43,115 nucleotides of DNA from an uncultured Rikenellaceae bacterium (GTDB taxonomy: Bacteria > Bacteroidota > Bacteroidia > Bacteroidales > VadinHA17): assembly GCA_964607105.1 (NCBI GenBank), contig CAZSJH010000002.1, forward strand, positions 1-43,115, in the 5' to 3' direction. A program made the translations under genes and the position numbers. The notes under the pieces were generated by a model. It was not told where the DNA came from. It saw only the letters and a list, made by a program, of their open reading frames with translations, and made no database searches. Shown here in pieces: positions 3,334 through 42,688 of the stretch. Within the stretch, counting starts at the first letter, position 1; each line of letters opens with the position of its first letter.

Positions 3334-5019
3334 ATGAGAATGAAACAGGAAGTATCATCGATACATATTTACTCAAAGTTAAATCCCAAAAAGATAAATA
3401 TTGGGGCATTCAATACTTATATCAGTGGTTTACCTCTTTTGATGGAAAAAAGGGGGTTGGGAGATGATTGGATTAGAAAATTAAATAAGGAGCTTATACA
3501 TAAACATATTAAGTCTGATAATGTATTAAAAGATTTGCTTAAATCTACCACCGGTTCCTTTTCATTAATTTTTTGGGATGGACAGGATTATATACTTGCT
3601 TCTGATATTATTAGAAGTTACCCACTTTTTTATGGATTTCATAAGGACAGGGTATTCATTACGGATAATCTAGATGAGTTCCAGAAAGAGAACGGTAGTT
3701 TTCAGATTGATAATAATAAACTTGTAGAGTTCTGCAGCACTGGCTGTGTGTATAATAATGGTACAGTATATCAGGATGTATATAGCCTCCAGGCTGGTGA
3801 GATAGTTACAATACGAAATAATAGTATAATTTCAGAACGATACTTCGAACTAATACCCAAAGAGTCTATTATCTTTAGGAATCTTTCTGATCTTGAGTAT
3901 ATAAAAAAATTCGATAATATACTCATGCTAATCTTCTCACGCTTGATCGGCAACCATCCTGATGTAAACAGGTGGGTAATTCCCCTCAGTGGAGGTCATG
4001 ATTCAAGGCTAGTAGTCAATTATCTTTATAGATTGGGAATAAAAAATGTTGTTTGTTTTTCCTATGGTACCCCAAAGAATGAACAATCTGTTATAAGTAA
4101 GCAAGTTGCTGAATCTTTAGGTTATGATTGGCATTTTGTCGAATATACAGATGAAAAATGGAAAGCACTTCATACAAATGGGGTTTTCAGTAACTATATT
4201 TCGTATGCGTGGAATGGTGTTTCAACACCTCATCTTCAGGACTTTCTGGCTGTTTATGAATTAAAGGAAAAAAGTATAATACTCGAAGGAGATATATTTG
4301 TCCCAGGCCATACAGTTGTTCCCGAAGGTGCATTTCATGCGAATACCCAGAAATTAGAAACTAGAGAAGAAGCCCTGGAATATGTTTTTACAAGGAATAT
4401 ATTGACTAACAGAGTATTAAAGGAGGGATCTTCGGTATATAATGAACTTCAGCTTATGTATGACAAGTCAAATACCAGCCCGAAAAACTTCATGGGATAT
4501 TGTGACTGGCAGGAGAGGCAATCGAAGTTTATTTCAAACAGCATTAAAGTATATGAGTTTTTTGGGTTTAAAACATTACAACCTATGTGGGATAGAGAGT
4601 GGGTCGATATCTGGATGAAGATTCCTGCAGAAAGGAGAGTGAATAGGGCCCTCCAGTTTTTAATGGAAGAACGAGGTGGATTAGTAAGTCAGTTACTACA
4701 TATTCCATATGCTGACGATGATAAAAAACCGGGTAAGTTTTCTCTGAAATCAATTTTGAAAAGAGTATTACCCAGTTTTGCAATAGTCCTATTACTACGT
4801 TTAACGAGGAGCTGTGTTGTCCTGGATGAAGCTATGAACATGCCATATGCAGTTGGAGATGTCACTGTGAAAAAATTTCTTGAGCCGATAGAAGACTTCC
4901 CGGAAAAGGTTATTTACTATTATAAAAATATAATGCCTCGTTACACATATCAGGTCGAGTCTAATATGTTGACAGTTCTTTATATTGTCAGAAGGCTTCA
5001 TGATAGGGTGAGAACTTGA
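3334..5019 (+). CDS. Asparagine-synthetase-B-like PP-loop ATP pyrophosphatase lacking the N-terminal Cys nucleophile, copy 1
   Basis: PP-loop PLSGGHDSRLV. The upstream region aligns by eye with the distal half of the glutaminase domain of the bona fide AsnB at 40434..42428 (SFSLIFWDGQDYILASDIIRSYPLFYG vs QFAFAIWDKQKEELFIARDRVGIRPLFYN; VYSLQAGEIVTI vs IYELSPGHYLIY). There is no MCG start. It is a paralog of 8407..10089. Confidence 0.7.
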   Translation: MRMKQEVSSIHIYSKLNPKKINIGAFNTYISGLPLLMEKRGLGDDWIRKLNKELIHKHIKSDNVLKDLLKSTTGSFSLIFWDGQDYILASDIIRSYPLFYGFHKDRVFITDNLDEFQKENGSFQIDNNKLVEFCSTGCVYNNGTVYQDVYSLQAGEIVTIRNNSIISERYFELIPKESIIFRNLSDLEYIKKFDNILMLIFSRLIGNHPDVNRWVIPLSGGHDSRLVVNYLYRLGIKNVVCFSYGTPKNEQSVISKQVAESLGYDWHFVEYTDEKWKALHTNGVFSNYISYAWNGVSTPHLQDFLAVYELKEKSIILEGDIFVPGHTVVPEGAFHANTQKLETREEALEYVFTRNILTNRVLKEGSSVYNELQLMYDKSNTSPKNFMGYCDWQERQSKFISNSIKVYEFFGFKTLQPMWDREWVDIWMKIPAERRVNRALQFLMEERGGLVSQLLHIPYADDDKKPGKFSLKSILKRVLPSFAIVLLLRLTRSCVVLDEAMNMPYAVGDVTVKKFLEPIEDFPEKVIYYYKNIMPRYTYQVESNMLTVLYIVRRLHDRVRT

Positions 5020-5110
5020 TAAAAAGATACCTTTAGTTACTTTTTTGAGATTTAGCCAGTAACAATCTAAAGGAGATAAAATTATTCCAGGAGATTTTAA
5101 TATCCAACTT

Positions 5111-5725
5111 ATGAATAAACGAAAAATATTAATTGTCCCTGTGATATTCTATCCCCAGAAAGCACTACTGTCTTACCGTACACCCGAAAGTGCACAATAA
5201 TATGACCAACAGTGATATAATGTGGTTTTGTATATACCATTAAGGGGATCTGATTATTTCTGTTGCATCTCCTTTCACTATACACTGGGGTGTTGAAAGA
5301 AGCAGAACAAAGAATCATAAGATAGCACATACTTGCATTGCTGATCCCTATAAGGACAATCAGGCAGACAGTATGAGAAAGCCATTCTATTTTAAGTATA
5401 TTGAAAAATTGGTCTCCAGGGAATGTGGATATCTGGCTATTACATTTAAAGCTTTAAGAAATAAATTTTACCTTGAGTTCCACAATATAATAGTTATTAT
5501 TCAACAGGTTTACAAAATACAAGATATAAAGCGTGCAGAAAGACTAAATAATAGTTTACCTACTTTTGTATTTTCAGGTTCTACTATTCCCGGTATGCGT
5601 CATCTTGATTTATTTTTTAGAATATGAAAAGATGTTAATCACGAATTCAATTCTGTGTATATACCAGCCAGCTTAACTATTTTTAAACCTCATGTGGAAT
5701 ATTGTGGAGATAGTCTGGTGATCAG
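5111..5725 (+). pseudogene. Decayed copy of the GT-B glycosyltransferase encoded at 10182..11306
   Basis: Hand translation gives MNKRKILIVPVIFYPQKALLSYRTPES then a stop (intact copy: MDRKKILIVSATFYPENSPRSFRTTEL). Further fragments follow in other frames: VVLYIPLRGSDY, ISVASPFTIHWGV...KNHKIA, RKPFYFKYIEKLVSRECGYL...LPTFVFSGSTIPGMRHLDLFF and GDSLVIS. There is an internal deletion and a 3' truncation just before wzx copy 2. Confidence 0.8.
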
Positions 5726-5741
5726 CTAAATAAAATCTGAT

Positions 5742-7217
5742 TTGAGCCTTAAACATAAAACAGTAAGTGGATTAACGTGGAGTTTTGCAGGTGATTTCAT
5801 AGAGAAGATTATTGTCTTTGTTGTTGGCATTATACTGGCACGATTACTGACTCCTAGAGAATATGGGCTTGTTGGCATGGTTACAATCTTTATTGTCTTA
5901 ACCCAGCCCTTTATTAATAGCGGTTTTAGCCAGGCATTAATAAGGAAGCAGAATTGCACTAAAACTGATTTTTCAACTGTTTTTTACTTCAATTTCCTTG
6001 TCGGTGTGGTTTTTTATGTCTTACTCTTTTTTGCTGCTCCTTTGATCAGTAGGTTTTTCAAAGAACCACAGTTAACAGTACTGACCAGAGTAATAGGTAT
6101 AATAATTATTATAGATGCAGCCACGCTTATCCAAACTACTATACTTACAAAGAATATTGACTTTAAAAAACAAACCCAGATTCTTGTAATCTCATCTCTG
6201 CTTTCAGGCGGACTTGGAATTTTTCTAGCTTACTCTGGTTTTGGAGTATGGAGCCTGGTGTATAAAACAATAGCTCAACATACCATTAGGTCTGCTTTAT
6301 TATGGTTTATGAACAGGTGGTTACCAGCCAGGACATTCAGTAAAACAAGTTTTAAAGAGATGTTTGGCTTTGGATCAAATCTATTAATAAGTGCAATACT
6401 CGATAAGGTATATTACAATATTTATAATCTGATTATAGCGAAATTCTTTTCAGCAAGGGAACTTGGTTTATATTCCCGGGCTGACATGTTTAAGAATATG
6501 GCTTCAACAAATATCAGCAATATAATCGGCAGGGTCTCATTTCCTGTTCTGTCGAACCTTCAGGATGATCCGGAGCGTTTAAGTGCCAATTATAAGAAGA
6601 TCCTTACGAATACGATGTTTATAACCTTTATCTTAATGATCAGCATCGCTGCAGCAGCTAAACCACTAATTCTGACACTTATTGGTGAAAAATGGGCTGA
6701 TGCTATTGTATATCTACAACTGCTGTGTTTCGTAGGAATTTTTTATCCGCTGCATGCCATGACCAGGACTTTGCTGTATGTTTATGGAAAAAGCAGACTC
6801 TTCCTCAATCTGCAGATAGTTTCCAAACTATTGACAATCCCGGCTATAATGGTTGGGATATTTTATGGCATAAAGGCAATGATAATCGGAATGATAGCTG
6901 CCGGTGCCATTGAATACTTCATGAAAGCATATTATTCGGGGAAAATAGCAGGTTATTCGATTAAGGAACAGATAAAGGATTTGTTACCTATTGTTTTCCT
7001 TGCGCTTTTTATCGGAACTATACTGTCACTTATTCTTTATTTTATGAAAGCAAGCCCGGTAATAATATTGACTCTCCAGGTAATTATGGGTATTGGATTA
7101 ACTATAAGTATCTCTCATTTGTTCAAAATCCCTGAGTACATCTTTATAAAGTCAATACTAAGAGAAAAGCTGGGCGATATACTTAATAACCGGAGAAATA
7201 AATTTAATCAAGACTAA
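5742..7217 (+). CDS. wzx: Wzx-type (MOP superfamily) polysaccharide flippase, copy 2
   Basis: 491 aa and colinear with 1785..3242 over the whole length, with long identical blocks such as VVGIILARLLTPREYGLVGMVTIF and LQLLCFVGIFYPL. TTG is the first possible start after an in-frame TAA. Confidence 0.8.
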   Translation: MSLKHKTVSGLTWSFAGDFIEKIIVFVVGIILARLLTPREYGLVGMVTIFIVLTQPFINSGFSQALIRKQNCTKTDFSTVFYFNFLVGVVFYVLLFFAAPLISRFFKEPQLTVLTRVIGIIIIIDAATLIQTTILTKNIDFKKQTQILVISSLLSGGLGIFLAYSGFGVWSLVYKTIAQHTIRSALLWFMNRWLPARTFSKTSFKEMFGFGSNLLISAILDKVYYNIYNLIIAKFFSARELGLYSRADMFKNMASTNISNIIGRVSFPVLSNLQDDPERLSANYKKILTNTMFITFILMISIAAAAKPLILTLIGEKWADAIVYLQLLCFVGIFYPLHAMTRTLLYVYGKSRLFLNLQIVSKLLTIPAIMVGIFYGIKAMIIGMIAAGAIEYFMKAYYSGKIAGYSIKEQIKDLLPIVFLALFIGTILSLILYFMKASPVIILTLQVIMGIGLTISISHLFKIPEYIFIKSILREKLGDILNNRRNKFNQD

Positions 7218-7240
7218 TATGGTGAAAAATTGATCTCTTT

Positions 7241-8398
7241 ATGAAAGCAAAAACTGGACAGGAAAGTCCTGTTTCTCTATTCATATGTGGGGATATACTC
7301 AATAAAGAAAAAACTGAAGGATTGGTTTGTTCTCCGGAAATGGAGCAACTTGTTTCTTCAGCTGATTATTCAATATGTAATTTTGAGGCTCCTGTTTCAG
7401 GATTTGGAAAGGAACAGGATACCCCGGGAGGTCATCATAATCAAAGGCCGGAGACAATACCGGGTCTCAGGATACAGGGGTTTAATATGCTATTATTAGC
7501 CAATAATCACATGTTGGATTTTGGTAAACCGGCCCTGGAAGCCACTTTGAAACTAGCCGAAGAAAATGGACTTGATACAATAGGGGCCGGCTCAGATGAA
7601 GAATTTGCTTATCAGCCTGTTGTTAAACTAATAAAAGGCTTAAAACTTGGATTTATAAATGCCTGTGAGGCACAATTCGGTGTTCTTGACTATATGACCG
7701 GATCAAACAAGGCTGGTTATGCATGGATAAACCATTCTGTAATAGATAAGAATATACTATTGCTCAAAAAGAAGTGTGATTTTGTTATTGTGTTTTCACA
7801 TGCAGGATTAGAGGATTTCCCCATTCCGCAAAAGGAATGGAGGATAAGATACAAACATTTATGTGATCTGGGTGCAGATGTAGTCATTGGTTCCCATCCC
7901 CATGTTCCACAGGGTTATGAGCATTATGGAGAATCATTAATTTTCTATAGCCTTGGTAATTTTTATTTTGATACACGTCGTTACAGGCAAAAAGAAAATT
8001 CTTCTTTTTCAGTTTGGCTTGAATTGAAAAAAGGAGGGAAACCTTCTTTCAGACCTGTATATCATTATAAGCACGATGGTTTTACGGACTTTGCACCAGA
8101 GAATAAAAGAGTTGATATAGATAAACTTAATAGTCTCCTGGGTGATGCCTATGAGACTGAGCACGATAAGATGAGCATGACCGTTTATAACAGGATTAAG
8201 AATAAATTGACAATCTCCTTGTTCCCTCCTATTCCGGTTGATGGAAAGATAAAAACTTTTTTCAGGATGTTATTATCGTTGATCATTAAGAAAAAAATCA
8301 GCTATCGGGATCTTCATCAACTAATCTTATTTAGAAATGATTCCCTTTATTTTGCGATACGTCATGCCCTGGAACTAAAGGTACAAAATAGAAGATAA
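7241..8398 (+). CDS. CapA/PGA_cap-family metallophosphatase-fold protein (family of the poly-gamma-glutamate capsule protein CapA/PgsA)
   Basis: Ordered family motifs are present: ICGD, CNFEAP, LANNHMLDFG, VFSHAGLE, GSHPHVPQG, YSLGNFYFD. Confidence 0.75.
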   Translation: MKAKTGQESPVSLFICGDILNKEKTEGLVCSPEMEQLVSSADYSICNFEAPVSGFGKEQDTPGGHHNQRPETIPGLRIQGFNMLLLANNHMLDFGKPALEATLKLAEENGLDTIGAGSDEEFAYQPVVKLIKGLKLGFINACEAQFGVLDYMTGSNKAGYAWINHSVIDKNILLLKKKCDFVIVFSHAGLEDFPIPQKEWRIRYKHLCDLGADVVIGSHPHVPQGYEHYGESLIFYSLGNFYFDTRRYRQKENSSFSVWLELKKGGKPSFRPVYHYKHDGFTDFAPENKRVDIDKLNSLLGDAYETEHDKMSMTVYNRIKNKLTISLFPPIPVDGKIKTFFRMLLSLIIKKKISYRDLHQLILFRNDSLYFAIRHALELKVQNRR

Positions 8399-8406
8399 TT
8401 TTTAAG

Positions 8407-10089
8407 ATGGAAAAAACCGGACCGGTAAATCTTTATTCATTATCAGGGCTATTGGAAAAAAAATCCGAATTAAGTGATCTTTATGTTCTGGGAGATCCAA
8501 CTTTTATTAACCAAGCACCTAATACCGATGAATGGATTAAAGAAATTGGCAGTCTCTTTGAATCTGAAGAGAATAGTATCTCTACCCGTTTGACTGAAGA
8601 ATTAAGAAATACCCGGGGCTTATTTTCATTGATATTGAAAAAGAGAAATGAATATATCATTGTAAGTGATTTAATACGAAGTTATCCAATATTTTACGGA
8701 TTTCATAACGATAGATTCTTCATAACTGATAAACTTGAGAACTTCCAGAGGGAGCATGGACGCTTTGAGATAGATTATGATAAACTTGAGGAGTATATTT
8801 CCTGTGGTCTGGTTTTAGGAAATGGAACACTATATAAAAATGTCTATGGTTTACAGGCTGGGGAGATTGTGACGATAAATGATGATATAATTAGCTCAAA
8901 TAGATATTTTAAATATATACCTGCCGAGAATCCTGCTCACTTCAAGAACCTTGATGAATTCACTGATGCTTTTGATAAGGTATTGATTTCTGTTTTTTCT
9001 TATATCTTAAAGAAAAATTCGAATGTTAACAGGTGGATAGTACCTTTAAGTGGAGGTCACGATTCCCGATTAATTGTTAATTACCTCTATCGGCTAGGGA
9101 TTAAAAATGTACTATGTTTTACTTATGGCCTGGTAAATAATGAACAGGCAAGAATAAGTAAAAGGGTCGCCGATACTTTAGGTTATGAGTGGCATTTCGT
9201 AGAGTATACAGAACAAAAATGGCAAAAGCTGCATGATAAAGGGCTAATAGATGCCTTTATAAATTATTCCTTCAACGGTGTATCAATTCCCCATCTTCAG
9301 GACTTTCTCGCTATTTATGAATTGAAAGAAAAGAATATTATCACAGATGATGATATTATCATTCCCGGGCATTCTGCCGTAACCGCGAGATTTGATCAGA
9401 ACAATTTTGACTTTTTAGACTATAATGACGTAGTAAGAATAGCTTATTATCATGAGACAGTAGCCAGCAACATCGATATTCTTAATCAACAGGCATTAAA
9501 GGATTTATGCCTTATTGGTGAAATTTCAGATATAGGTCCGGGAAACTTCCGAGCTTTTATTAACTGGCAGGAAAGACAATCAAAATTTACTGTTAACAGT
9601 ATTCAGGCTTATGATTTTTTTGGTTTTAAGAGCCAGCTTCCTTTCTGGGATAGGCTTATGGTTGATTTCTGGTTAGATTATCCTGCAAATCAAAGGGCAG
9701 GGAGGCAAGTACTGTATCAGGCGGAAGAGAATGGACTGCTTGTTGATGAATTGAAGCAAGTTCCATTTGCCGGACAAAAGAAAGTGTCAGAGAATACTGC
9801 CCTTAAAAGCAGAATAAAAAAAATAATACCTGACTTTGTACTTGTTAAAATATTGCGTTTAACAGGTTATAAAGCTAAATTGGATGAAGCAATGAACCAG
9901 GTTTATGCTTTGAAAGCAGGATCTGTACTCGAGCTCCTGGACCCTGTAGATGATTTCCCTCAATCCACACGGTCATATTTTGATGCTAATTTGCATAAAT
10001 TTACATATCAGGTCGACTCTAACTTGATTACAAGGCTTTATACAGTCAGAAAGCTTCTGGATAAAAAAAAAAGGATTAACGGGATATAA
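8407..10089 (+). CDS. Asparagine-synthetase-B-like PP-loop ATP pyrophosphatase lacking the N-terminal Cys nucleophile, copy 2
   Basis: PP-loop PLSGGHDSRLIVNYLYRLGIKNV, nearly identical to copy 1. The LFSLILKK..VSDLIRSYPIFYGFHNDRFFITD and VYGLQAGEIVTI blocks are shared. There is no Cys2. Confidence 0.7.
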   Translation: MEKTGPVNLYSLSGLLEKKSELSDLYVLGDPTFINQAPNTDEWIKEIGSLFESEENSISTRLTEELRNTRGLFSLILKKRNEYIIVSDLIRSYPIFYGFHNDRFFITDKLENFQREHGRFEIDYDKLEEYISCGLVLGNGTLYKNVYGLQAGEIVTINDDIISSNRYFKYIPAENPAHFKNLDEFTDAFDKVLISVFSYILKKNSNVNRWIVPLSGGHDSRLIVNYLYRLGIKNVLCFTYGLVNNEQARISKRVADTLGYEWHFVEYTEQKWQKLHDKGLIDAFINYSFNGVSIPHLQDFLAIYELKEKNIITDDDIIIPGHSAVTARFDQNNFDFLDYNDVVRIAYYHETVASNIDILNQQALKDLCLIGEISDIGPGNFRAFINWQERQSKFTVNSIQAYDFFGFKSQLPFWDRLMVDFWLDYPANQRAGRQVLYQAEENGLLVDELKQVPFAGQKKVSENTALKSRIKKIIPDFVLVKILRLTGYKAKLDEAMNQVYALKAGSVLELLDPVDDFPQSTRSYFDANLHKFTYQVDSNLITRLYTVRKLLDKKKRINGI

Positions 10090-10181
10090 ACTTATTACTG
10101 CAATTATAACCTCAGAAGTGAAAACAATACCATTACCTTATACTAAAAGTAGAATAAACCAATAATTAACTCAGACCCGGA

Positions 10182-11306
10182 GTGGATAGAAAAAAAATCC
10201 TGATCGTCTCAGCAACTTTTTACCCTGAAAACTCACCACGTTCTTTTCGAACAACAGAGTTGGTAAAAGAAATGTCCCGGCAGGGACATGAAGTGCATAT
10301 TTATATTCCATTCAGGGGAAATGATTACAGCGAATTTGCCAGTGAACATAATCTGACAATAAAAGACCTTGGTAAACTAAGGTTTAAAAGCATTGAGCTT
10401 AAGGGCAGAAGGCTGGGGATGTATTTAAGGCGCATAGTAAGAAGAAGTATGACATTATTACTGGAGTACCCATATATTGAATTAATGTTTAAGGTCTCAA
10501 AGCATCTGAGGAAAGAGGATAATTATGATATGTTAATATCCATCGCAGTACCTTTTTCTGTACACTGGGGAGTGGCAAAGGCCCGGAGGAAGAACCACCG
10601 GATAGCTTCTATTTGGGTTGCTGACTGCGGTGATCCCTTTATGGGCAAACAGACTGATAGTTTCCAACGGCCTTTCTATTTTAAATATGTTGAAAAATGG
10701 TTCTCCCGTAAATGCGATTACCTTTCAGTACCGTTTGATGCCTTGAAAGATAAGTTTTACCCGGAGTTTAGTGATAAAATGCTTGTTATACCACAGGGTT
10801 TTAAGGTAGAAGACATTAAACTGGCTGACAAAGTCGATAACCCGGTACCTACATTTGCATTTTCAGGCTCAATAATTCCAGGGATACGTGATCTTAATTT
10901 GTTCTTTGAAATCCTGAAAGAAATAAATCGCAAGTTCAAGTTCTACATTTTTACCAGCCAGCCTGAATATTTTATGTCATTCAAGAATTATTTCGGAGAT
11001 AATCTGGAGATCAGCGGATATATTCCCAGATTGAAATTACTATATGAATTAAGCAAGTGTGATTTCCTGGTGAATGTTGATACTATCTATGACGGACAGT
11101 CATTAAATGCAGCCTTCCCAAGTAAACTTATTGACTATTCATTCACAAAAAGACCTATACTCAATATTTGCAGTAATTCTATAGATAAGGAAGTCGTTTT
11201 ACAATTCTTGGACGGAAACTATATAAATGAACGTAAAGTTGATTCTGATAAATACAGAATAGAGAATATTGTAGTAAGTTTTCTTGAACTTATTAATTCA
11301 GATTGA
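10182..11306 (+). CDS. GT-B fold glycosyltransferase (GT4-like)
   Basis: The N-terminus KILIVSATFYPENSPRSFRTTELVKEMSRQGHEVHIY is typical of the GT4 N-domain, and the C-terminal FPSKLIDYSFTKRPILN resembles the GT-B acceptor/donor loop. GTG start. This is the intact counterpart of the pseudogene at 5111..5725. Confidence 0.6.
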   Translation: MDRKKILIVSATFYPENSPRSFRTTELVKEMSRQGHEVHIYIPFRGNDYSEFASEHNLTIKDLGKLRFKSIELKGRRLGMYLRRIVRRSMTLLLEYPYIELMFKVSKHLRKEDNYDMLISIAVPFSVHWGVAKARRKNHRIASIWVADCGDPFMGKQTDSFQRPFYFKYVEKWFSRKCDYLSVPFDALKDKFYPEFSDKMLVIPQGFKVEDIKLADKVDNPVPTFAFSGSIIPGIRDLNLFFEILKEINRKFKFYIFTSQPEYFMSFKNYFGDNLEISGYIPRLKLLYELSKCDFLVNVDTIYDGQSLNAAFPSKLIDYSFTKRPILNICSNSIDKEVVLQFLDGNYINERKVDSDKYRIENIVVSFLELINSD

Positions 11307-11333
11307 TATCCGGTAACTATACTAATAAGTAAT

Positions 11334-12623: not shown

Positions 12624-12665
12624 TAATGAACAAGGCAATCAGGGGTTCTTTACACCAGATACATT

Positions 12666-13811: not shown

Positions 13812-13812
13812 T

Positions 13813-22632: not shown

Positions 22633-22638
22633 TTTTGG

Positions 22639-32052: not shown

Positions 32053-32115
32053 CATTTTACGAATTATTGCTTTTACATTTGAAGCTGTAACTCAAAACTG
32101 AACTAAATAATCAGG

Positions 32116-33264: not shown

Positions 33265-33351
33265 TAAGCACTTTTAAGTTTGTGATTATTCATCAATTTT
33301 ATTCGTTGAGATAAATAATAATTGCAGGAATAGAATTAAATATCAGTTAAA

Positions 33352-33894: not shown

Positions 33895-33907
33895 TAAAAA
33901 GGATAAT

Positions 33908-34633
33908 ATGAGTAAGATTATTTTTCTTCACCATAGCACGGGTGAATGCATATGGGTGGGAAATACAAACCATTACATCTACCGGCTTACGAAAAAAGGA
34001 GATGTTAAGACTTATTTCAGGAAACTAAACAGGAAGGCAGGGAATAAACATTCTATAACTGAACATAACTTCCCGGCCAAAGTGCCTTACGGATGGAAAA
34101 ATTATCCTTACGATTATTATAATATCTGGGTTAAAAATGCAGGGGATACTCCCTATATGAATGAACCTACCCTTGAAATACTTACAAGGGAATATGATAT
34201 TATTATTTTTAAGCATTGTTATCCGGTAAGCATAATATTGGAAGATACCGGTCATGCTGATATTGATTCTGACGAAAAGAGGCTGGAAAATTACAAGCTT
34301 CAGTATGAAGCACTTAAAGGCAAAATGCATGAATTTCAGTCAACAAAATTTATTGTCTGGACCCCTCCGGTAAGGGTTAAAAGCGGACTGACGGAAGATC
34401 AGGCAAGAAGGACCAGGGAATTTTACAAATGGATTTTGGATGAGTGGGATGAAAAGGGGGACAATATTTTTATATGGGATTTTTATAAGTATGGAACTGA
34501 AGGTGGGCTCTATCTGAAAGATGAATACTCAAAAGGTGGTGGTGATTCCCATCCATCAAAAGAATTCTCAGGACAGTTAGCTCCGAAATTCGCAAAATTC
34601 ATAATGGATGTGGCAGAAGGGAATGTTGAATAG
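33908..34633 (+). CDS. Hypothetical protein (no confident family; possibly an esterase-like alpha/beta fold)
   Basis: 241-aa ORF, last gene of the plus-strand operon, in a tight spacing pattern. I recognise no diagnostic motif (IIFLHHSTGE near the N-terminus, GGGDSHPS near the C-terminus). Confidence 0.4.
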   Translation: MSKIIFLHHSTGECIWVGNTNHYIYRLTKKGDVKTYFRKLNRKAGNKHSITEHNFPAKVPYGWKNYPYDYYNIWVKNAGDTPYMNEPTLEILTREYDIIIFKHCYPVSIILEDTGHADIDSDEKRLENYKLQYEALKGKMHEFQSTKFIVWTPPVRVKSGLTEDQARRTREFYKWILDEWDEKGDNIFIWDFYKYGTEGGLYLKDEYSKGGGDSHPSKEFSGQLAPKFAKFIMDVAEGNVE

Positions 34634-34636
34634 ATA

Positions 34637-37126: not shown

Positions 37127-37267
37127 GTATTGTCAGCCCTCATAGGGCCTGGCATTAAAATTTAACAATGTACTATTTTTAACGAAGGAGGGTAATTTTT
37201 GTTGCTTTTACCCGGTGGCAAAAATACAATTATTTTTTATTTCAGCTAAGGATCTCATAAATATTAT

Positions 37268-37300
37268 AAAAAAAACCGCCTGAGATCAGACGGCTTTTTT
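37268..37300 (-). terminator. Rho-independent terminator ending the minus-strand ACP-asnB-nadE-adenylase operon (flanked by an A8 run and a T6 run, so weakly bidirectional)
   Basis: Plus strand reads AAAAAAAA-CCGCCTGAGATCAGACGG-C-TTTTTT. On the minus-strand RNA the stem CCGUCUG/CAGGCGG has 7 bp including one G.U pair, with a 4-nt loop, followed by U8. On the plus-strand RNA the same position is a C.A mismatch, which favours minus-strand function. Confidence 0.6.
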
Positions 37301-37608
37301 AAAAATCACTTCATATTGTCAATCCATTATCTCATCATAATATATTTCAAAGGTTCTGACAGGTGAAGCGCCCATTGGTGACTTCCACATCAAGACCCTC
37401 GGGGAAAGCATCTTCAGGGGAATGGCCGTCTTTATTTTTGATGAGAATGGTTAAAAAAATGATGAAATTAGTTATTCAAGATATGAAAGGTCATTTAGCC
37501 ATGCTAATGGTAAATATTGATTGTTGCCTACTAATTTAACTTAATATTGAGTTCCCTGTTGACGACAGTTAACGTAACATATTAAAGATCCTTTACCATG
37601 CCCGGATT

Positions 37609-39063
37609 TTATTTCTTTTTAATCTTCTTACCTGTTGCTGTAATGGTCAGTTTATACTTGAGCTCCCAGACGCCAGGAACCTTAAATAACGCCAGGTGTT
37701 CTGAACAATGCTGTTTAATTGATTCTTCTGTCAAAGAATCTTTATGCTCTTCTCGTACAACAACGGTTGCTTTCAGCCTTTCCCCTTCGATCTCATCTTC
37801 AATGCCTGTAATTGTGCAGTCTATTATACCGGGGATTGCCAGTATTACTGCTTCAATTTCTTTTGGGCTGACGCGTTTTCCTCTTACTTTTATGATTTCT
37901 TTTGACCTTGCAGTCAGGTAGATATAACCGTCCTCGTCCACTGTTCCAAGGTCTCCCGTATGGAGCCACCCGTTTCTTAGGGTTTTACTTGTTCCCTCTT
38001 CGTCATGGAAATAACCTTTCATTACATTATCGCCACGTGCAATAACTTCACCTATTTCACCGGGTTTTATTTTCTTTCCTTCCTCGTTTACCACTATTAA
38101 TTCTACCCCCGGTATACCTCTTCCCATTGATCCTCTCCTTTCATCAAGCAATTCTGGCGGCAGCCATGATAACCTGGCGGTGGCTTCTGTCTGGCCGTAC
38201 ATCACAATAAATCTGATCTCCGGGTGCGCTTCCCTGAACTCATCCATGAATATTGTAGCCAGCTTACCTCCTGCCTGTGTAACATACTTAAGGTCAGGAA
38301 AATGTGTTTTCTTAAAAGTGTCTGACTTTCTCAGGAGTATCTGGAAATGACTTGGTATTCCTGCGAAGCCTGTGCATTTATATTCAAGAAGATCCTGAAT
38401 TACTTTACCGAGGAAAATAAATGAATTATTGAATACTATTGAGCCTCCAACCCTTAGATGAGTATGGAGTAGAGATAAGCCATAACAATAATAGAATGGC
38501 AGCACGACAAGCATTCTGTCATCAGGGGTTAACTCTAGGTATTCAACAATTGAACTGGTGTTGGCAATCAGATTCTTATGAGAGATCATAACACCTTTTG
38601 GTTCTCCTGTTGAGCCTGAGGTGAATATTATCTCAGCACATTCTTCAATATCAGTATCTTGATTTAATTCAGAAGCTTCATGACTATCAATGTTTTCAAT
38701 ATCAGGTGGCAGGGTACAGCGGTAGTTATCAAGAGCCAGTCTGTTCCTGATATTTTCTGTTACCATGATCATTGACGGTTCGGTTAACCCGGCAATATAA
38801 TCAAAATTACCCTTCTCAATATTCGGATCAAGCGGGATGCACACATTTCCTGACTTTATTACAGACAGGTATGTCTTAAGCATAAAGAGATTGTTAACTG
38901 ACAGGATAATTATGTTTTTATCGGTTCCATTTTCTTTTCTTATCCATGATGCCAGATCGAGGCATTCGTTATAAAGGTCTTTGTATGCAATTTCCTCATT
39001 GCCAATCAGGAAAGGCTTTTCGAGGCTGGAAGTATTTTCAAAAAAGTAATCAAATGCGTTCAT
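37609..39063 (-). CDS. Stand-alone ANL-superfamily adenylating enzyme (DltA/NRPS A-domain-like acyl- or aminoacyl-carrier-protein ligase)
   Basis: Core motifs are present: IFTSGSTGEPKGV (A3), YGQTEAT (A5), LHTGDLG (A7), ARSKEIIKVRGKRVSPKEIE (A8), and a C-terminal TGKKIKK (A10 Lys). Confidence 0.85.
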   Translation of the reverse strand: MNAFDYFFENTSSLEKPFLIGNEEIAYKDLYNECLDLASWIRKENGTDKNIIILSVNNLFMLKTYLSVIKSGNVCIPLDPNIEKGNFDYIAGLTEPSMIMVTENIRNRLALDNYRCTLPPDIENIDSHEASELNQDTDIEECAEIIFTSGSTGEPKGVMISHKNLIANTSSIVEYLELTPDDRMLVVLPFYYCYGLSLLHTHLRVGGSIVFNNSFIFLGKVIQDLLEYKCTGFAGIPSHFQILLRKSDTFKKTHFPDLKYVTQAGGKLATIFMDEFREAHPEIRFIVMYGQTEATARLSWLPPELLDERRGSMGRGIPGVELIVVNEEGKKIKPGEIGEVIARGDNVMKGYFHDEEGTSKTLRNGWLHTGDLGTVDEDGYIYLTARSKEIIKVRGKRVSPKEIEAVILAIPGIIDCTITGIEDEIEGERLKATVVVREEHKDSLTEESIKQHCSEHLALFKVPGVWELKYKLTITATGKKIKKK

Positions 39064-39094
39064 AATGTTTATTTTTCTTATATTATGTCTTAAT

Positions 39095-39180
39095 GAGGCT
39101 CAAAGCCTTTCGTCTTTAATGGTGTTTTTATTTATAATGTTACTGTAAAAACTTCTTTTCAGGCGCAAAGCCTTGCGCCT
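39095..39180. repeat. GC-rich palindromic element: one perfect copy AGGCGCAAAGCCTTGCGCCT (39161..39180) and one degenerate copy GAGGCTCAAAGCCTTTCGTCT (39095..39115)
   Basis: 8-bp stem AGGCGCAA/TTGCGCCT with a 4-nt loop. The identical 20-mer recurs at 40319..40338. Confidence 0.8.
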
Positions 39181-39193
39181 CTACAATTACCTC

Positions 39194-39235
39194 TATACTT
39201 TATACTTTATACTTTTTACTTTTATCTTTTGTCTT
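39194..39235. repeat. Degenerating 7-nt tandem repeat (TATACTT x3, then TTTACTT, TTATCTT, TTGTCTT)
   Basis: Read directly from the sequence. It lies between the stop of the nadE-like gene and the palindromic element. Confidence 0.8.
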
Positions 39236-39279
39236 TACTTTATTATATCTTCGTCCGCCGACTTTGATCTGATAAAATC

Positions 39280-40269
39280 CTATATACCATAATAATCTCT
39301 TATCGGTGCCATCCTCAGGTACTCTGTTGTTTTCCTCTTTCTTTCAAAGTTAATGAACAAAGCTTTTATTCGTTCCTCTGTCTCACCCATCACCTCAGCG
39401 ATCTCTGCAGGAGCATATCCATTCTCAAATCCATACCAGTAAATATCCATCTGGTCAAAAGGCAGCTGGAAGAAGAATTCTTCCTGTGTTTGTTCAGCTG
39501 AGTATGTGTCTGTGGTTGGTGTTCTGTCAATTATTTCTTTAGGTACACCCAGGTATTCTGCAAGCTGGTAGACCTGTGTTTTATAAAGATTGCCAATGGG
39601 CATAATGTCTGCACCCCCATCTCCATACTTAACGAAGAACCCCTGTTCCTGCTCATGTTTGTTAGGTGTCCCGATAACTGCATAATGAAGGTTCTCAGCA
39701 TGGTAATAGATCATGGACATCCTTGTTCGCTGTTTGAAATTTGATGCGGCAACAATCTGAAGGTATTCATTTACGGGCAGGTGCTTTTCTTTACTGTTAC
39801 CTTTACCATCAACTATTGTTAAGGTGAATATTGGGGGTAGTTTGGAGAAAAGGCCACTTTGTTTTATACCAATCTTCATTGTATATGTCTGAGGATCATA
39901 TTCAGGGAAGACATTTTTTACAGCCTCATCACGTCGTTCATAACACCTGAAACCTGAGAGGGCAGAGGTTATTACCTCCTTGATTGCTTTTACACCAAAT
40001 GTTTTAGCAAGATCCCCTGCCAGCTTTTCGCTGTCGGGGGAAGAGTCTTTTTCTGGTAACATGATACCCAGGACATTTTCAGGGCCAAAAGCTTTTACAG
40101 CAAGTGCAAAGCAAACGGAAGAGTCTATACCCCCGCTTATTCCCACAACCCCTCCTTTTCTTCTTAACTTATTCAAGACATCCTCCTGCATCTTTTTTAC
40201 TATACTGTTCACAACGTTCTCAAGGTTGTCCAGTAAGATACTGTCTTTTGAGAAAGGTTTTTTATTCAT
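39280..40269 (-). CDS. nadE: NAD+ synthetase (NadE)-family PP-loop amidoligase
   Basis: GGVVGISGGIDSSVCFALAV (PP-loop), NFKQRTRMSMIYYHAE, IGTPNKHEQEQGFFVKYGDGGADIMPIGNLYKTQVY. I prefer the ATG at 40269 (MNKKPF...). The track start at 40326 is a TTG inside the palindromic element. Confidence 0.8.
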   Translation of the reverse strand: MNKKPFSKDSILLDNLENVVNSIVKKMQEDVLNKLRRKGGVVGISGGIDSSVCFALAVKAFGPENVLGIMLPEKDSSPDSEKLAGDLAKTFGVKAIKEVITSALSGFRCYERRDEAVKNVFPEYDPQTYTMKIGIKQSGLFSKLPPIFTLTIVDGKGNSKEKHLPVNEYLQIVAASNFKQRTRMSMIYYHAENLHYAVIGTPNKHEQEQGFFVKYGDGGADIMPIGNLYKTQVYQLAEYLGVPKEIIDRTPTTDTYSAEQTQEEFFFQLPFDQMDIYWYGFENGYAPAEIAEVMGETEERIKALFINFERKRKTTEYLRMAPIRDYYGI

Positions 40270-40318
40270 GATTTCATATCTTTCAAATTCAGCATAAATT
40301 TCAAATTTTATTTTTGTG

Positions 40319-40366
40319 AGGCGCAAAGCCTTGCGCCTCTATTTTAGACGCGCTACTAGCGCGTCT
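40319..40366. repeat. Two adjacent GC-rich palindromes: AGGCGCAAAGCCTTGCGCCT (40319..40338, identical to 39161..39180) and AGACGCGCTACTAGCGCGTCT (40346..40366)
   Basis: Read directly from the sequence. Each is followed by CTCTA(C/T), as at 39181. Confidence 0.8.
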
Positions 40367-40378
40367 CTACGATTTTCT

Positions 40379-40410
40379 ATTATTCCATTATTCCATTATT
40401 CCATTATTTC
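40379..40410. repeat. 8-nt tandem repeat ATTATTCC x3 plus a degenerate fourth unit ATTATTTC
   Basis: Read directly from the sequence. It lies between the asnB stop and the palindromes, the same layout as 39194..39235. Confidence 0.8.
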
Positions 40411-40433
40411 ATGAATATTACATCCCCCTGGCC

Positions 40434-42428
40434 TCACTTCGTGCGACCTTCCCCTTTCAAAGGGGCATCCTCAATAATCCTTAGATTTTTAAGTTCAGGC
40501 CCTTCATATTCTGCATTGCATCCCTGGATGAACTGGTAATGCAGCAGATGGGTGGATATTACTGCTGCCAGTACCATATTATCCATTTCGGATACATTTC
40601 CTGTTTTTTTTATTTTATTTAGTATAGCAGAAATGGACTCAAAGTCAAAAACGCCTGCATTCCTTGTATAGCTTTCAGACAACATGTCTCTGGCATAAAC
40701 AGGAGTATTTTCGTTGAGGAATACGCTGCTGATAGGAGCACGGTAAGGTTGCTTGGGTCTTTTGATTATGCTTTCGGGTATCCTGTTTTCCATCAGTTTC
40801 TTCAGTAAGAATTTTTCATTCAATCCCCTCAATTTATATTTTGCAGGCAGCCCGGCACAAAACTCGATAAGCCTGTGATCAAGGAAAGGATATCTTCCCT
40901 CGACGGAGTTTGCCATTGCCATCCTGTCTCCCTGAGATGAAAGGAGGTACCCCGACATAAATACAGTTGTCTCAATCCACTGGGCTTTAGCGAGTGAATC
41001 CCATGTGTCATAAGCAGCAGGAAGTTTGTTTGCTAGATTATCAAAAGGGTCGTAGTTTTTAAGATCTTCTTTGATATCAACCGAGAAATGTTTCTTAATA
41101 TGGTTTGAATTGTTCCATCTCAATAAGTGGGAGTAAAACGGGTTATTTACATCCTCAAGCTTATATCCAAAAAACATTTTAAGGATGTTAGGGCTTGCAT
41201 TTCTAAGGTGAGGTATATCAGGGTAGATTCTTTTCAACAGAAGGGGCCTCATTGCTGAGTCAGGTTGTCTGGCCCAGAATCTCCTAATTTCCGCCTCCCT
41301 GAAAATATCGTAACCGGCAAGCATTTCGTCTGACCCTTCACCTGTTATCACTACCTTAATATCATTGTTCCGTACCAGCCCGGATAGTATCATCATTGGT
41401 GTCGGGGCAGTTCTTGTAACAGGTGTCTCAGAATGCCAAACCACCTTCGGAAAATTAATTGAAATATCACTGGCAGAACAATTTATGGATTTATGGTTCG
41501 TATCGAGGAATTTTACAGCCTCCTCCTGGTAGCTGCTTTCGTCGAAGACCTTGTCTTCAAATCCAATAGAAAAGGTGTTCAATACACCTGGTTCAATTTC
41601 CTTAATATATGCTACAGTGGCGCTGGAGTCGATACCTCCGCTCAGATAAGCTGCTACCTCTACATCTGCTCTTAACCTTAACCTGACGGCACTGATTAAT
41701 AACTCATTTAATCTTTCCCTGGCATCATCAAACGAAAGATTATCGTACCTGCTGCCAAAACTTAATTCCCAGTATTTTTTAACTTTCAGCCCGTTTCGCT
41801 TATAAATAAGGTAATGTCCGGGAGAGAGTTCATATATATTCCTGAAGGCTGTATCAGGACTTATTGTGGTCCAGAAGGTATAGATCTGTGACAGGCTTTC
41901 AGTATTGAACTCCCGCGAAACAGATTTTTGTTGAAAAATGGCTTTTATTTCAGAAGCAAATGAAAATACTCCATCAGTTATATTATAGAATAATGGCCTG
42001 ATACCAACTCTGTCTCGGGCAATAAAGAGTTCTTCTTTTTGTTTATCCCAGATAGCAAATGCAAACTGACCATTTAGTAACTGGAGGCAATTTTTCCCAT
42101 AAGCAGCATAAAGCTTAACCAGTACCTCTGTATCTGACTGGGTTTTAAAAGAGTCACCTTTTTTTTCCAGCTCTGAGCGGAGTTCTTTATAATTAAAGAT
42201 TTCACCGTTAAATACTATCCAGAATCTACCTGTGGAATCTGATAAAGGTTGCTGTCCACCAGTAATGTCAATTATAGATAGCCGTACATTCCCTATGCTT
42301 GCGTAAGGTGAATGGTAAATTCCGCTTTCATCGGGTCCTCGAAAACTGATAGACTGGAGCATTGATTTAATCATAACTGCGCTGTTTGCACTGCCCCTAA
42401 AGTCTAGTATACCGGCTATTCCGCACAT
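40434..42428 (-). CDS. asnB: Asparagine synthase (glutamine-hydrolysing) family amidotransferase, complete two-domain form (WbpS-type context)
   Basis: MCGIAGI N-terminal nucleophile Cys2, RGPDESG, NGEIFNY, ARDRVGIRPLFY, and the PP-loop AAYLSGGIDSS. Confidence 0.9.
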   Translation of the reverse strand: MCGIAGILDFRGSANSAVMIKSMLQSISFRGPDESGIYHSPYASIGNVRLSIIDITGGQQPLSDSTGRFWIVFNGEIFNYKELRSELEKKGDSFKTQSDTEVLVKLYAAYGKNCLQLLNGQFAFAIWDKQKEELFIARDRVGIRPLFYNITDGVFSFASEIKAIFQQKSVSREFNTESLSQIYTFWTTISPDTAFRNIYELSPGHYLIYKRNGLKVKKYWELSFGSRYDNLSFDDARERLNELLISAVRLRLRADVEVAAYLSGGIDSSATVAYIKEIEPGVLNTFSIGFEDKVFDESSYQEEAVKFLDTNHKSINCSASDISINFPKVVWHSETPVTRTAPTPMMILSGLVRNNDIKVVITGEGSDEMLAGYDIFREAEIRRFWARQPDSAMRPLLLKRIYPDIPHLRNASPNILKMFFGYKLEDVNNPFYSHLLRWNNSNHIKKHFSVDIKEDLKNYDPFDNLANKLPAAYDTWDSLAKAQWIETTVFMSGYLLSSQGDRMAMANSVEGRYPFLDHRLIEFCAGLPAKYKLRGLNEKFLLKKLMENRIPESIIKRPKQPYRAPISSVFLNENTPVYARDMLSESYTRNAGVFDFESISAILNKIKKTGNVSEMDNMVLAAVISTHLLHYQFIQGCNAEYEGPELKNLRIIEDAPLKGEGRTK

Positions 42429-42688
42429 TACGCTACCTGTAATTTCCGGGATATAAAACCTGTAATTGCATTTATTGATTCAAAATTTTCTTCTATAAGG
42501 TCTTCATCACCGGTTTTAATATTAAACTCTTCTTCCAGAAAAGATATCAAAGTTATGAATCCCATAGAATCAAAGAATCCTTCTTTGAAGACCAGTGTGT
42601 CATTTTGAATTTTTTCTTTTTCAGCATGTACTGAGTCAAGGATATAAGATTTTACTTTTCCCTTTATTGGATTTATATTATCATTCAT
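42428..42688 (-). CDS. Acyl/peptidyl carrier protein
   Basis: 86 aa with the FFDSMGFITLISFLEEEF phosphopantetheine-attachment Ser motif. Its stop overlaps the asnB start (TAATG). Confidence 0.8.
   Translation of the reverse strand: MNDNINPIKGKVKSYILDSVHAEKEKIQNDTLVFKEGFFDSMGFITLISFLEEEFNIKTGDEDLIEENFESINAITGFISRKLQVA

Follow-up and report, generated by a model that had tools for sequence, protein, structure and literature searches.

Why would a bacterium keep more carboxylate-activating ligases than glycosyltransferases (GTs) among the genes for one surface polysaccharide, and what would such ligases make? The question is raised by a stretch of 43,115 nucleotides from an uncultured Rikenellaceae bacterium (GenBank assembly GCA_964607105.1, contig CAZSJH010000002.1, positions 1 to 43,115; hereafter the window, in whose coordinates its features are given), in which an earlier note, made from the letters alone, described a single Wzx/Wzy-type polysaccharide locus with ten enzymes of ATP-dependent carboxylate activation. 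Our analysis shows that the window is a two-part super-locus whose parts differ in evolutionary behaviour, and that the part on the plus strand is best described as an expanded variant of the loci for amide-ligase-tailored Wzx/Wzy polysaccharides, within a broad and uncharacterised cassette family. With regard to its product, we lean, with modest confidence, toward a scenario in which cytoplasmic deacetylation and amide ligation take place on a lipid-linked repeat unit and provide it with amino-acid or short-peptide decorations, the export block on the opposite strand being a separate matter.

Results

Thirty-five substantial open reading frames (ORFs) were called in the window and all of them were scanned against Pfam and NCBIfam. 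They form two convergent parts of a capsule or exopolysaccharide region, a variable Wzx/Wzy locus on the plus strand (5-34633), which is a single tightly packed gene string, and the tail of an export operon on the minus strand (37269-43115). The plus-strand part contains what is expected of a Wzx/Wzy-dependent locus, namely two Polysacc_synt_3 genes, an EpsG gene, a Bac_transf gene and four GT-B genes, all on one strand. The ten proposed ligase ORFs exist, and family scans, motifs and folds put them in the superfamilies to which they had been assigned: three are ATPgrasp_ST proteins, two are RimK-like, two are AsnB-like and lack the glutaminase cysteine, and the rest are a true AsnB, a NadE and an ANL ligase that comes with a carrier protein. 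The idea that all ten make up one locus had to be abandoned, since four of the genes concerned lie on the minus strand, at the 3' end of a Wza/Wzc export operon that is a unit of its own, convergent with the locus and conserved.

The five ATP-grasp genes that had been claimed all lie on the plus strand and are three ATPgrasp_ST genes and two RimK-like genes, the latter being weak by Pfam. The ATPgrasp_ST proteins represent three subtypes, B (13813-14940, +; PF14397 89.9 bits; DNLSSGG), C (14937-16016, +; 122.2 bits; DNITSGG) and A (26903-27907, +; 151.6 bits), where the PF14397 gathering score is 31.4 bits, and all three carry the predicted DN-x3-G-(G/N) motif (at residues 250, 249 and 223). 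In an alignment of 18 sequences that included the three window proteins, K140, D296, E308, N310 and D223-N-x3-G were invariant. Subtype C is triplicated in two related loci, L008 and L091. For subtype A we found at least 1393 homologs, with orthologs 53-72% identical across Bacteroidota, and a position one to four genes from a Bac_transf gene in the window, in L003, L005 and L006 and in many loci of the census described below, which bears out the supposed association of ATPgrasp_ST with Bac_transf. None of the five ATP-grasps matched ATPgrasp_TupA (PF14305) at E <= 0.01, and sequence searches of the PDB, either with an ATPgrasp_ST protein alone or with the family profile, gave nothing meaningful. 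We also considered N-acylation of the 4-amino group of the initiating sugar by subtype A; because a PglD-type acetyltransferase is present as well, we keep this only as a possibility.

The two RimK-like genes (16035-17066 and 17084-18103, both +) encode proteins that are 58% identical to each other. Their scores of 23.7 and 22.5 bits are barely over the Pfam RimK gathering threshold of 21, and their 39 and 33 bits with TIGR00768 are far under its cut-off of 143.4. When the family profile was searched against the PDB, the RimK structures 5zct and 4iwx were the first matches (E about 8e-5), and the proteins therefore appear, as far as sequence comparison goes, to have an ATP-grasp fold that is closest to RimK and to form a separate clade. 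Seven aligned members all share KVFKLRGGSGS, which binds ATP, and the acidic Mg ligands. The clade also has a highly conserved N-terminal region rich in Cys, His and Trp (DCDxLMWHH). In essentially all census loci the RimK-like gene is followed by a GT gene. A reading of the ATP-grasps as part of a pathway for a graspetide or other ribosomally synthesised and post-translationally modified peptide was rejected, as neither a precursor peptide nor a protease is present and the genes are interleaved with GT genes.

The other two plus-strand ligases are AsnB-like PP-loop adenylating enzymes (3334-5019 and 8407-10089, both +), which are 46% identical paralogs. They scored 24.1 and 18.7 bits with Pfam Asn_synthase (cut-off 21) and 37.5 and 30.8 bits with TIGR01536 (cut-off 267), and belong to a clade of proteins of about 555 residues with at least 567 members. 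In an alignment of 25 members, the PLSGGHDSR PP-loop is invariant, the protein encoded at 8407-10089 has all invariant residues, and the N-terminal Cys2, the glutaminase nucleophile, is absent from every one of the 25. An AlphaFold2 model of the first protein (predicted local distance difference test score, pLDDT, 85.4) has the two-domain AsnB fold, and Foldseek matched it to beta-lactam synthetase, carbapenam synthetase (CarA), AsnB/ASNS and TsnB9 with E values of about 1e-16 to 1e-13. On the strength of the PP-loop and the modelled fold, and given the missing cysteine, we predict that the pair adenylates a carboxylate but would be unable to take ammonia from glutamine. The proposal of three AsnB-family genes thus stands in part: the gene at 40434-42428 is a true AsnB, whereas these two are only divergent, glutaminase-less AsnB-fold relatives.

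The CapA-family protein, the two CE4-like proteins, the NodB deacetylase and the GNAT that had been listed beside the ligases are all present, the GNAT by a weak match. CE4-like protein 1 (12666-13811, +) has no Pfam match and is a candidate cytoplasmic, divergent NodB-fold deacylase. It is a 34.5% identical paralog of CE4-like protein 2 (25785-26906, +), with which it shares DD, H-x3-H and SHR motifs; the latter, first in a module of CE4-like, ATPgrasp_ST and GNAT genes, reaches 22.3 bits with Polysacc_deac_1, under the threshold of 23.1. The family comprises at least 2484 proteins, nearly all annotated as hypothetical, and its invariant residues, D27-D28, H148/H152 (H-x3-H) and H323 (Ser-His-Arg), correspond to the metal and catalytic residues of CE4 enzymes. 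For an AlphaFold2 model of CE4-like protein 2 (pLDDT 85.9), the best Foldseek matches were the CE4 enzymes 3rxz and 3qbu and ArnD (8t0j), with E about 4e-6 to 4e-5 and TM scores of 0.53-0.60 on the target. ArnD deformylates a lipid-linked amino sugar. A CE4-like profile searched against PDB sequences found nothing meaningful. The third gene of this type (29843-30718, +; Polysacc_deac_1 75.5 bits) encodes a canonical NodB/PgaB-type CE4 deacetylase without a signal peptide. Neither signal peptides nor transmembrane (TM) segments were found on the ligases or CE4-type proteins of the window, which makes it plausible that they act at an ATP-accessible cytoplasmic stage, on nucleotide- or undecaprenyl-linked intermediates.

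The minus strand carries, from the window edge inward, (i) the C-terminus of a tyrosine kinase co-polymerase of Wzc type (42743-43115; AAA_31), the gene for which leaves the window; (ii) an acyl/peptidyl carrier protein (ACP; 42428-42688; PP-binding 22.7 bits), the serine motif of which reads FDSM; (iii) a glutamine-hydrolysing AsnB-family amidotransferase (40434-42428; Asn_synthase 287.7, GATase_7 158.7 and TIGR01536 510 bits); (iv) an NH3-type NAD(+) synthase PP-loop enzyme (39280-40269; NF002048 431.6 bits against a cut-off of 313, NAD_synthase 176) and (v) as the last gene of the block, an ANL (acyl-AMP-forming) ligase (37609-39063; AMP-binding 217.1 and AMP-binding_C 46.3 bits). The amidotransferase starts MCGIAG, is encoded by the sole AsnB-fold gene of the window with Cys2, a GATase domain and a TIGR01536 score over 267, and has 447 metagenomic relatives. 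Both ANL domains and the carrier serine are there, in agreement with the families first assigned; the nearest named models for the ANL ligase are a fatty-acid-CoA ligase (325 bits) and the exosortase-A-associated TIGR03098 (287.8 bits), and it is under the cut-off of both. The enzyme once termed NadE-like is a PP-loop enzyme as stated, and goes beyond a mere likeness in that it satisfies the housekeeping NAD synthase model NF002048; it is 73-89% identical and collinear in relatives. Close homologs of it (about 435 bits) also occur in two other polysaccharide loci, L141 and L150 (18727-19719; WbpM-CapA-RimK-like-GT-...-NadE), a hint that its role may be linked to glycans and not be purely one of housekeeping.

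The order WbaP-like phosphoglycosyltransferase (PGT)-Wza-Wzc-ACP-AsnB-NadE-(occasional insert)-ANL is collinear in about 30 sufficiently long contigs, at 55-89% amino acid identity; the relatives have a full Wzc of 800 residues, preceded by Wza and the WbaP-like PGT. The export block is a conserved unit found beside many different variable loci. In the window it also has its own intrinsic-terminator-like hairpin (37269-37300, -; a 14-bp stem and then a T run), directly downstream of the ANL stop, and the conserved collinearity and the hairpin together separate the four minus-strand genes from the variable locus. A sigma-70 promoter scan was set aside because the promoters of Bacteroidota differ, and the hairpin alone was used. 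It is a strong one and lies in a 480-bp non-coding gap (37127-37608); in relatives this position is taken by a gene for a lipoprotein of 319-323 residues (L010 15390-16349; L003 19958-20929; 41% identical).

L010 and L091, which are on one contig, have the same convergent layout as the window, and the 323-residue protein encoded after the T9SS (type IX secretion system) gene in L003 is 41% identical to that of the ORF directly following ANL in L010. For these two reasons we rejected the idea that the L003 contig lacks an export block, and it is probable that in the close lineage the two parts, separate units though they are, have been kept as neighbours. We propose that the acyl-loading and amidating genes of the export block serve a conserved function and not this repeat unit. 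A non-ribosomal peptide branch had been proposed for the repeat unit, but the ANL, ACP, AsnB and NadE genes say little about it, since they are in the conserved block and resemble a PEP-CTERM-associated set of AsnB, acyl-CoA ligase and ACP.

How exceptional is the plus-strand locus? When genomes were scanned for the RimK-like family, at least 571 loci came up; at E <= 1e-30 the clade comprises 309 clusters (50% identity). The carriers include Marinilabiliales (Saccharicrinis, Carboxylicivirga, Geofilum and Plebeiibacterium), Prolixibacteraceae, Rikenellaceae, Balneolaceae (Fodinibius, Aliifodinibius) and Chlorobiaceae, as well as metagenome-assembled genomes assigned to Aminicenantes, Verrucomicrobiae, Smithellaceae and Oscillospiraceae. 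Among the cultured carriers of the cassette are Geofilum rubicundum JCM 15548, Plebeiibacterium marinum, Carboxylicivirga caseinilyticus and Fodinibius roseus DSM 21986. We then took a phmmer census of 56 genome loci of at least 14 kb, chosen for carrying a RimK-like gene. Two modules recur in it: (AsnB-like or AsnB)-GT4n-EpsG-CE4-like(x1-3)-(CapA)-(AsnB)-RimK-like-GT, where GT4n is the GT4-like gene described below, and CE4-like-ATPgrasp_ST-GNAT-like-(unknown-CE4)-PGT. The survey of gene neighbourhoods also showed that the ligases are co-conserved with GT, Wzx, Wzy-like and PGT genes across phyla.

Per 20 kb, the census median is one ATP-grasp and two ligases; one or two ATP-grasps are usual, and just 3 of the 56 loci have five or more. 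With its five, the window is thus truly enriched in ligases, and it is in the company of L008, from a metagenome (six in tandem), and of three census loci, L091, the closest relative (seven), L110 (six) and L107 (five). The number of ATPgrasp_ST plus RimK-like genes in the array differs among close relatives (2+2, 4+2, 4+1 and 2+4). The gene combination that had been thought unusual is, on this evidence, an enlarged form of a cassette that hundreds of genomes carry, and some relatives have larger arrays. No characterised system with this gene set was found in the literature searched, and a literature search on ATPgrasp_ST or the sugar-transfer associated ATP-grasp returned no papers. Amide ligases go unmentioned in a paper on the genetics of Proteus O-antigens.

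The plus-strand locus is also a mosaic. Its left module, consisting of the WbpM-like gene, the first wzx and the first AsnB-like gene, is 89, 89 and 75% identical to L008, and its right module, consisting of the second wzx, CapA, the second AsnB-like gene, GT4n and EpsG, is 90, 80, 72, 81 and 90% identical to L007. Between them, at the recombination junction of the two locus types, sits a GT4n pseudogene (5111-5727). L007 and L003, which lie on one 306-kb contig, match the remaining window gene for gene, with just one Wzx gene and one AsnB-like gene. The L008-like left, the L007-like right and the pseudogene between them point to the window being an L007-type locus that has probably retained the 5' end of an L008-type locus, and one AsnB-like gene may be redundant.

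Other genes of the window

The plus-strand unit begins with a WbpM/PglF/EpsC-like UDP-sugar 4,6-dehydratase gene (5-1711, +; Polysacc_synt_2 383 bits), which is cut at its 5' end by the window edge and is 84-89% identical to the first gene of L007 and of L008. Upstream of the WbpM-like gene, L007 (1-5160) and L008 (1-6334) have genes for a CHU_C/PKD giant surface protein, PorP/SprF and PD40-OmpA, neighbours which indicate that the polysaccharide region is embedded among gliding and T9SS surface-protein genes. The first Wzx flippase, of L008 type (1785-3242, +; Polysacc_synt_3 297 bits; nine TM segments), is 67% identical to the second and 89% to that of L008. The GT4 pseudogene (+) is frameshifted and truncated, as tblastn with GT4n found amino acids 1-56 in one frame and 116-278 in another; an ORF inside it (5373-5627) is 54% identical to GT4n. 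It is followed by the second Wzx flippase, of L007 type (5742-7217, +; Polysacc_synt_3 305 bits; 90% identical to L007), and by a CapA/PGA_cap protein (7241-8398, +; PGA_cap 171.1 bits, threshold 27), a candidate amino-acid or peptide epimerase that weakly matches the model of the epimerase MslH.

GT4n itself, a GT4-like glycosyltransferase (10182-11306, +; Glyco_transf_4 35 bits), is always encoded next to an EpsG-like gene, and the triad of GT4n, EpsG and CE4-like genes is found in most of the 56 census loci. In the window the EpsG-family membrane protein (11334-12623, +; EpsG 56.9 bits; eight TM segments) is a candidate Wzy-like polymerase. The partner of the RimK-like genes is a GT-B glycosyltransferase (18189-19253, +; Glycos_transf_1 134.9 bits), and further GTs are encoded at 19250-20395 (GT-B, +; Glycos_transf_1 54.5 bits) and 24537-25772 (GT4, +; 51.8 bits with both Glyco_transf_4 and Glyco_trans_1_4). 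The count of four intact GT-B genes and one small PGT that had been given is therefore correct, the pseudogene being an addition to it.

Between the last two GT genes are a fusion of Zn-ADH-like and Gfo/Idh/MocA (WbpB-like) domains (20485-22632, +; ADH_zinc_N 69.5, GFO_IDH_MocA 71.4 bits), which reaches 78.6 bits with a UDP-GlcNAc 3-dehydrogenase model and is under its cut-off, and a heparinase II/III-like protein without an evident signal peptide (22639-24540, +; Hepar_II_III_C 67, Hepar_II_III_N 45 bits), possibly a uronate-acting lyase or epimerase. This pair (20485-24540) recurs in L003, L092, L098, L102, L103 and L168, and a role in uronate formation or C5 chemistry is a possibility.

The small GNAT-like acyltransferase (27907-28506, +) has weak matches to Acetyltransf_10/_1 and to N-acetyltransferases in the PDB, and no match to TIGR03019 or any other NCBIfam model. 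Its start overlaps the stop of the subtype A ATPgrasp_ST gene (TGATG), so that the two are translationally coupled, and their adjacency is conserved in relatives. Next comes a 391-residue protein with an N-terminal membrane anchor (28570-29745, +; TM segment at residues 1-24), for which there was no Pfam or NCBIfam match and nothing meaningful in a PDB sequence search; it is kept between the GNAT-like and CE4 genes in L003 and L091. Beyond the CE4 gene, the unit continues with a small PglC/EpsL-type initiating PGT (30711-31295, +; Bac_transf 194 bits), a DUF218 lipoprotein (31417-32052, +; 54 bits; lipobox-like N-terminus), a DegT/PglE-type sugar aminotransferase (32116-33264, +; DegT_DnrJ_EryC1 344.7 bits) and a hexapeptide-repeat N-acetyltransferase of PglD/EpsM/WbpD type (33352-33894, +; Hexapep 46 bits). 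The last gene of the plus-strand unit encodes a 241-residue protein (33908-34633, +) with no Pfam or NCBIfam family and no PDB sequence match. Its homologs (45-64% identity; L011, L012, L034, L037, L041 and L088) are at the ends of variable loci and also just downstream of ANL in export blocks.

Between the two units lies a T9SS cargo gene (34637-37126, -), the product of which combines a Pel9A-like beta-helix, Big_7 repeats and Por_Secre_tail. Its homologs are at the edges of L003, L005, L010, L093, L099, L136 and L153, and it may be a capsule-processing depolymerase.

Discussion

What we observe are the families of the genes, their catalytic motifs and folds, their synteny, the operon split and an array larger than in most relatives; the substrates, the order of the steps and the choice between peptide and single-residue decoration are inferred. 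In the scenario that we favor, the WbpM-like dehydratase, the DegT aminotransferase, the hexapeptide acetyltransferase and the PglC-type PGT would make a bacillosamine-type amino sugar and place it onto undecaprenyl phosphate, and the four GT-B enzymes would extend the repeat by up to four sugars. The CE4 and CE4-like proteins, as metallo-deacylases, would bare sugar amines with the repeat still lipid-linked in the cytoplasm. The five ATP-grasps would form amides via acyl-phosphates and one or two of the glutaminase-less AsnB-fold enzymes would do so via acyl-adenylates, the bonds joining sugar amines or carboxylates to amino acids. The tandem ST-ST-RimK-like-RimK-like array would work at least partly in series and would thus make a short peptide, not single residues. 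The GNAT coupled to the third ATPgrasp_ST would cap an amine, the CapA-like protein may epimerise a residue, and ligation would precede the next glycosyl transfer, as the invariant pairing of RimK-like and GT genes suggests.

Our reasoning with regard to a peptide comes largely from gene counts. The plus-strand locus has seven ligases (five ATP-grasps and two AsnB-like enzymes) against at most five sugars (four GTs and one PGT), and L091 has eight against at most five, which argues that some ligations are serial or share a sugar. Taken together with an array that is in tandem and duplicates, this excess favors a short peptide. As would be expected of antigen-diversifying tailoring, the size of the array is variable. 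The proposal that the repeat carries amide-linked amino acids is, in view of the intact ligase motifs, the glycan context and the characterised precedents, the most economical reading of the locus, the substrates themselves being inferred. Amidated uronic acids, also proposed, fare less well, in that there is no UDP-sugar 6-dehydrogenase and the hints in their favor are indirect (the heparinase-like protein, the dehydrogenase fusion and the amidating enzymes).

Several points weigh against the favored scenario: (i) no gene of the UDPG_MGDP_dh family, that of the UDP-sugar 6-dehydrogenases, is in the window, so that a sugar carboxylate is only a putative acceptor; (ii) the ATPgrasp_ST, RimK-like, AsnB-like and CE4-like clades have no member with a defined substrate, and for ATPgrasp_ST no solved structure is detectable by sequence; (iii) in the RimK-like clade, E294-x-S296 replaces the canonical E-x-N Mg ligand in seven of seven sequences; (iv) one pair of Wzx and AsnB-like genes is in a decaying duplicate, and not every ligase need be used; (v) the GT counts may miss unrecognised GT families, such as might be represented by an unassigned ORF of 403 residues in L091; (vi) in the census the CE4-like genes are tied more closely to EpsG and GT4n than to the ATP-grasps, and their role may for this reason be unrelated to ligation and (vii) the NadE of the window may simply be housekeeping.

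A more ambitious version, which we entertain tentatively and consider possible, is that the ATP-grasp array is an assembly line for a non-ribosomal peptide stem of three to six residues on one sugar of the lipid-linked repeat. ATP-grasps would here replace Mur ligases, with two ATPgrasp_ST and two RimK-like enzymes in the window and four and two in the closest relatives; the CapA epimerase would add a D-residue, an AsnB-fold enzyme would close or amidate the stem, and the length of the array would set the length of the peptide and so diversify strains. A free amine on such a stem might, as a further possibility, be an attachment point for T9SS cargo, by analogy with the Ser or Gly of the Porphyromonas linking sugar.

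The opposite view would be that no peptide is made and that each ligase adds one independent small substituent (an amino acid, an ammonia-derived amide or another amine) at a different site, the high gene count reflecting many decorated positions together with redundancy from the duplicated module. This is in keeping with the characterised precedents, all of which are single-residue (GlcN3NAcA(N) receives Ser or Gly, GlcA receives serinol or ethanolamine and E. coli O-antigens have single aminoacyl groups), with the location of one AsnB-like gene in a remnant module and with the three CE4-type genes and the aminotransferase, which could provide about four amines. We nevertheless think it rather unlikely, as it sits poorly with the surplus of ligases over sugars both here and in L091, with tight tandem arrays that expand through duplication of one subtype and with the fact that the nearest structural relatives of the RimK-like proteins, the RimK enzymes, are processive chain extenders.

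It could also be argued that the array makes a product of its own, such as a free di- or oligopeptide, a poly-amino-acid (for instance a poly-glutamate-like polymer) made together with the CapA-like protein, or an acyl donor derived from an amino acid, that is merely co-encoded or co-exported with the polysaccharide. L-amino-acid ligases are ATP-grasps, CapA/PGA_cap is a component family of poly-gamma-glutamate capsules and RimK-type enzymes build poly-alpha-glutamate tails. Against this, family scans of the window found no PgsB/PgsC-like gene, no dedicated transporter and no precursor of a peptide, the ligase genes alternate with those for GTs, the Wzy-like protein and the PGT on a single strand in overlapping or near-abutting ORFs, an arrangement kept across phyla, and a GT gene invariably comes after the RimK-like gene; we consider such a product very unlikely. 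Equally doubtful is the claim that mosaic evolution and adjacency largely account for the apparent saturation with ligases, with NadE as a housekeeping gene and a pathway that uses far fewer than ten ligases. In its favor, conservation of the export block does not depend on the variable locus, NadE is over the NF002048 cut-off and there is a GT pseudogene beside a duplicated Wzx/AsnB-like module. Against it, removal of the minus-strand block and the duplicate still leaves five ATP-grasps and one AsnB-like enzyme with intact catalytic motifs, the syntenic L007/L003 keeps exactly that set at 72-90% identity and NadE homologs recur inside the polysaccharide loci L141 and L150.

There is precedent for the chemistry that we favor. 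In the Wbp/Vim system of Porphyromonas gingivalis and Tannerella forsythia, the CE4 enzyme VimE frees an amine that VimA aminoacylates with Ser or Gly, and a uronate is amidated by an AsnB-type enzyme whose gene comes directly after wzx, all in a T9SS context (PMC7468200). The window, from the same phylum, likewise has CE4 or CE4-like genes with those for an amide ligase and a GNAT behind them, adjacent Wzx and AsnB-like genes and a flanking T9SS cargo gene. However, VimA is of FemAB/GNAT type (TIGR03019), whereas the candidate of the window is an ATP-grasp and its GNAT-like protein is without TIGR03019; the window also lacks a WbpA-type 6-dehydrogenase, its AsnB-like proteins lack the glutaminase cysteine and it has many more ligases. 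It is analogous to Wbp/Vim in logic and is not a member of that system.

A second precedent is Cj1438 of the C. jejuni HS:2 capsule, the C-terminal TupA-like ATP-grasp of which amidates GlcA on the growing lipid-linked chain, the next GT requiring the amidated sugar (PMC11800379). Ligation before glycosyl transfer is what the invariant pair of RimK-like and GT genes would parallel, although Cj1438 belongs to the TupA-like family, is fused to a GT2 domain and uses serinol-P or ethanolamine-P, not an amino acid, as the amine, whereas the window enzymes match ATPgrasp_ST or RimK and stand alone. MslH, the only characterised member of the CapA family, is an epimerase of the C-terminal residue of a peptide, a role that the authors of that study propose for CapA as well (PMC8179263). 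Amide-linked, N-acetylated amino acids are found in the E. coli O91, O121, O114, O63, O110 and O167 antigens (PMC7685785).

With respect to the enzyme families, the closest solved relatives of the RimK-like pair are RimK proteins, which add amino acids onto a terminal carboxylate; the pair differs in being far under the family cut-off, in its E-x-S in place of E-x-N, in its distinctive N-terminal domain and in its glycan locus. The best structural matches of the AsnB-like proteins, beta-lactam and carbapenam synthetase, are AsnB homologs with a dead glutaminase in which adenylation is followed by attack of an amine that does not come from glutamine, but identity is about 13% and the AsnB-like genes are in polysaccharide loci, always beside GT4n-EpsG. 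For the ATPgrasp_ST clade, comparative genomics, reportedly by Iyer et al. in 2009 (Mol Biosyst), is said to have predicted a link to sugar transferases by analogy with TupA and teichuronopeptide. The three window proteins are bona fide members of this clade, and subtype A is beside Bac_transf as the family name implies. That prediction is generic and without a defined substrate; the window adds to it the tandem array, the RimK-like clade, the glutaminase-less AsnB-fold enzymes and the CE4-like family.

Two further comparisons concern the initiation genes and the export block. The dehydratase, aminotransferase, acetyltransferase and PGT presumably resemble the set for bacillosamine initiation in Pgl/Eps systems (PglF/E/D/C; EpsC/N/M/L in B. 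subtilis), with the difference that here some of the genes are at one end of the locus and some at the other. The minus-strand AsnB and ANL proteins have among their best named matches the accessory set of XrtA/PEP-CTERM exopolysaccharide (EPS) loci (TIGR03108, TIGR03098 and an ACP), and they too are encoded in an EPS operon, one for export. They differ from this set in that both are under the cut-offs (431.6 vs 816.9 for TIGR03108 and 287.8 vs 592.35 for TIGR03098), in that a NadE gene lies between AsnB and ANL and in that no exosortase is found among the window ORFs.

That bacterial glycans carry amino acids in amide linkage is well documented by chemistry, but the enzymes that attach them are known for only a handful of cases. 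The window and its relatives define four large and almost wholly unannotated families that keep company in the polysaccharide loci of Bacteroidota from the sea and from sediments and of other phyla. Assigning substrates to them would fill a gap in the enzymology of glycan tailoring and would make ATP-dependent ligases that join glycans and amino acids available to chemoenzymatic synthesis. Capsules that bear peptides could also come to light in this way, the most elaborate of which would be predicted for the expanded arrays (the window, L091, L008, L107 and L110); if such capsules do exist, they would be relevant to recognition by phages and the immune system and to the turnover of marine polysaccharides.

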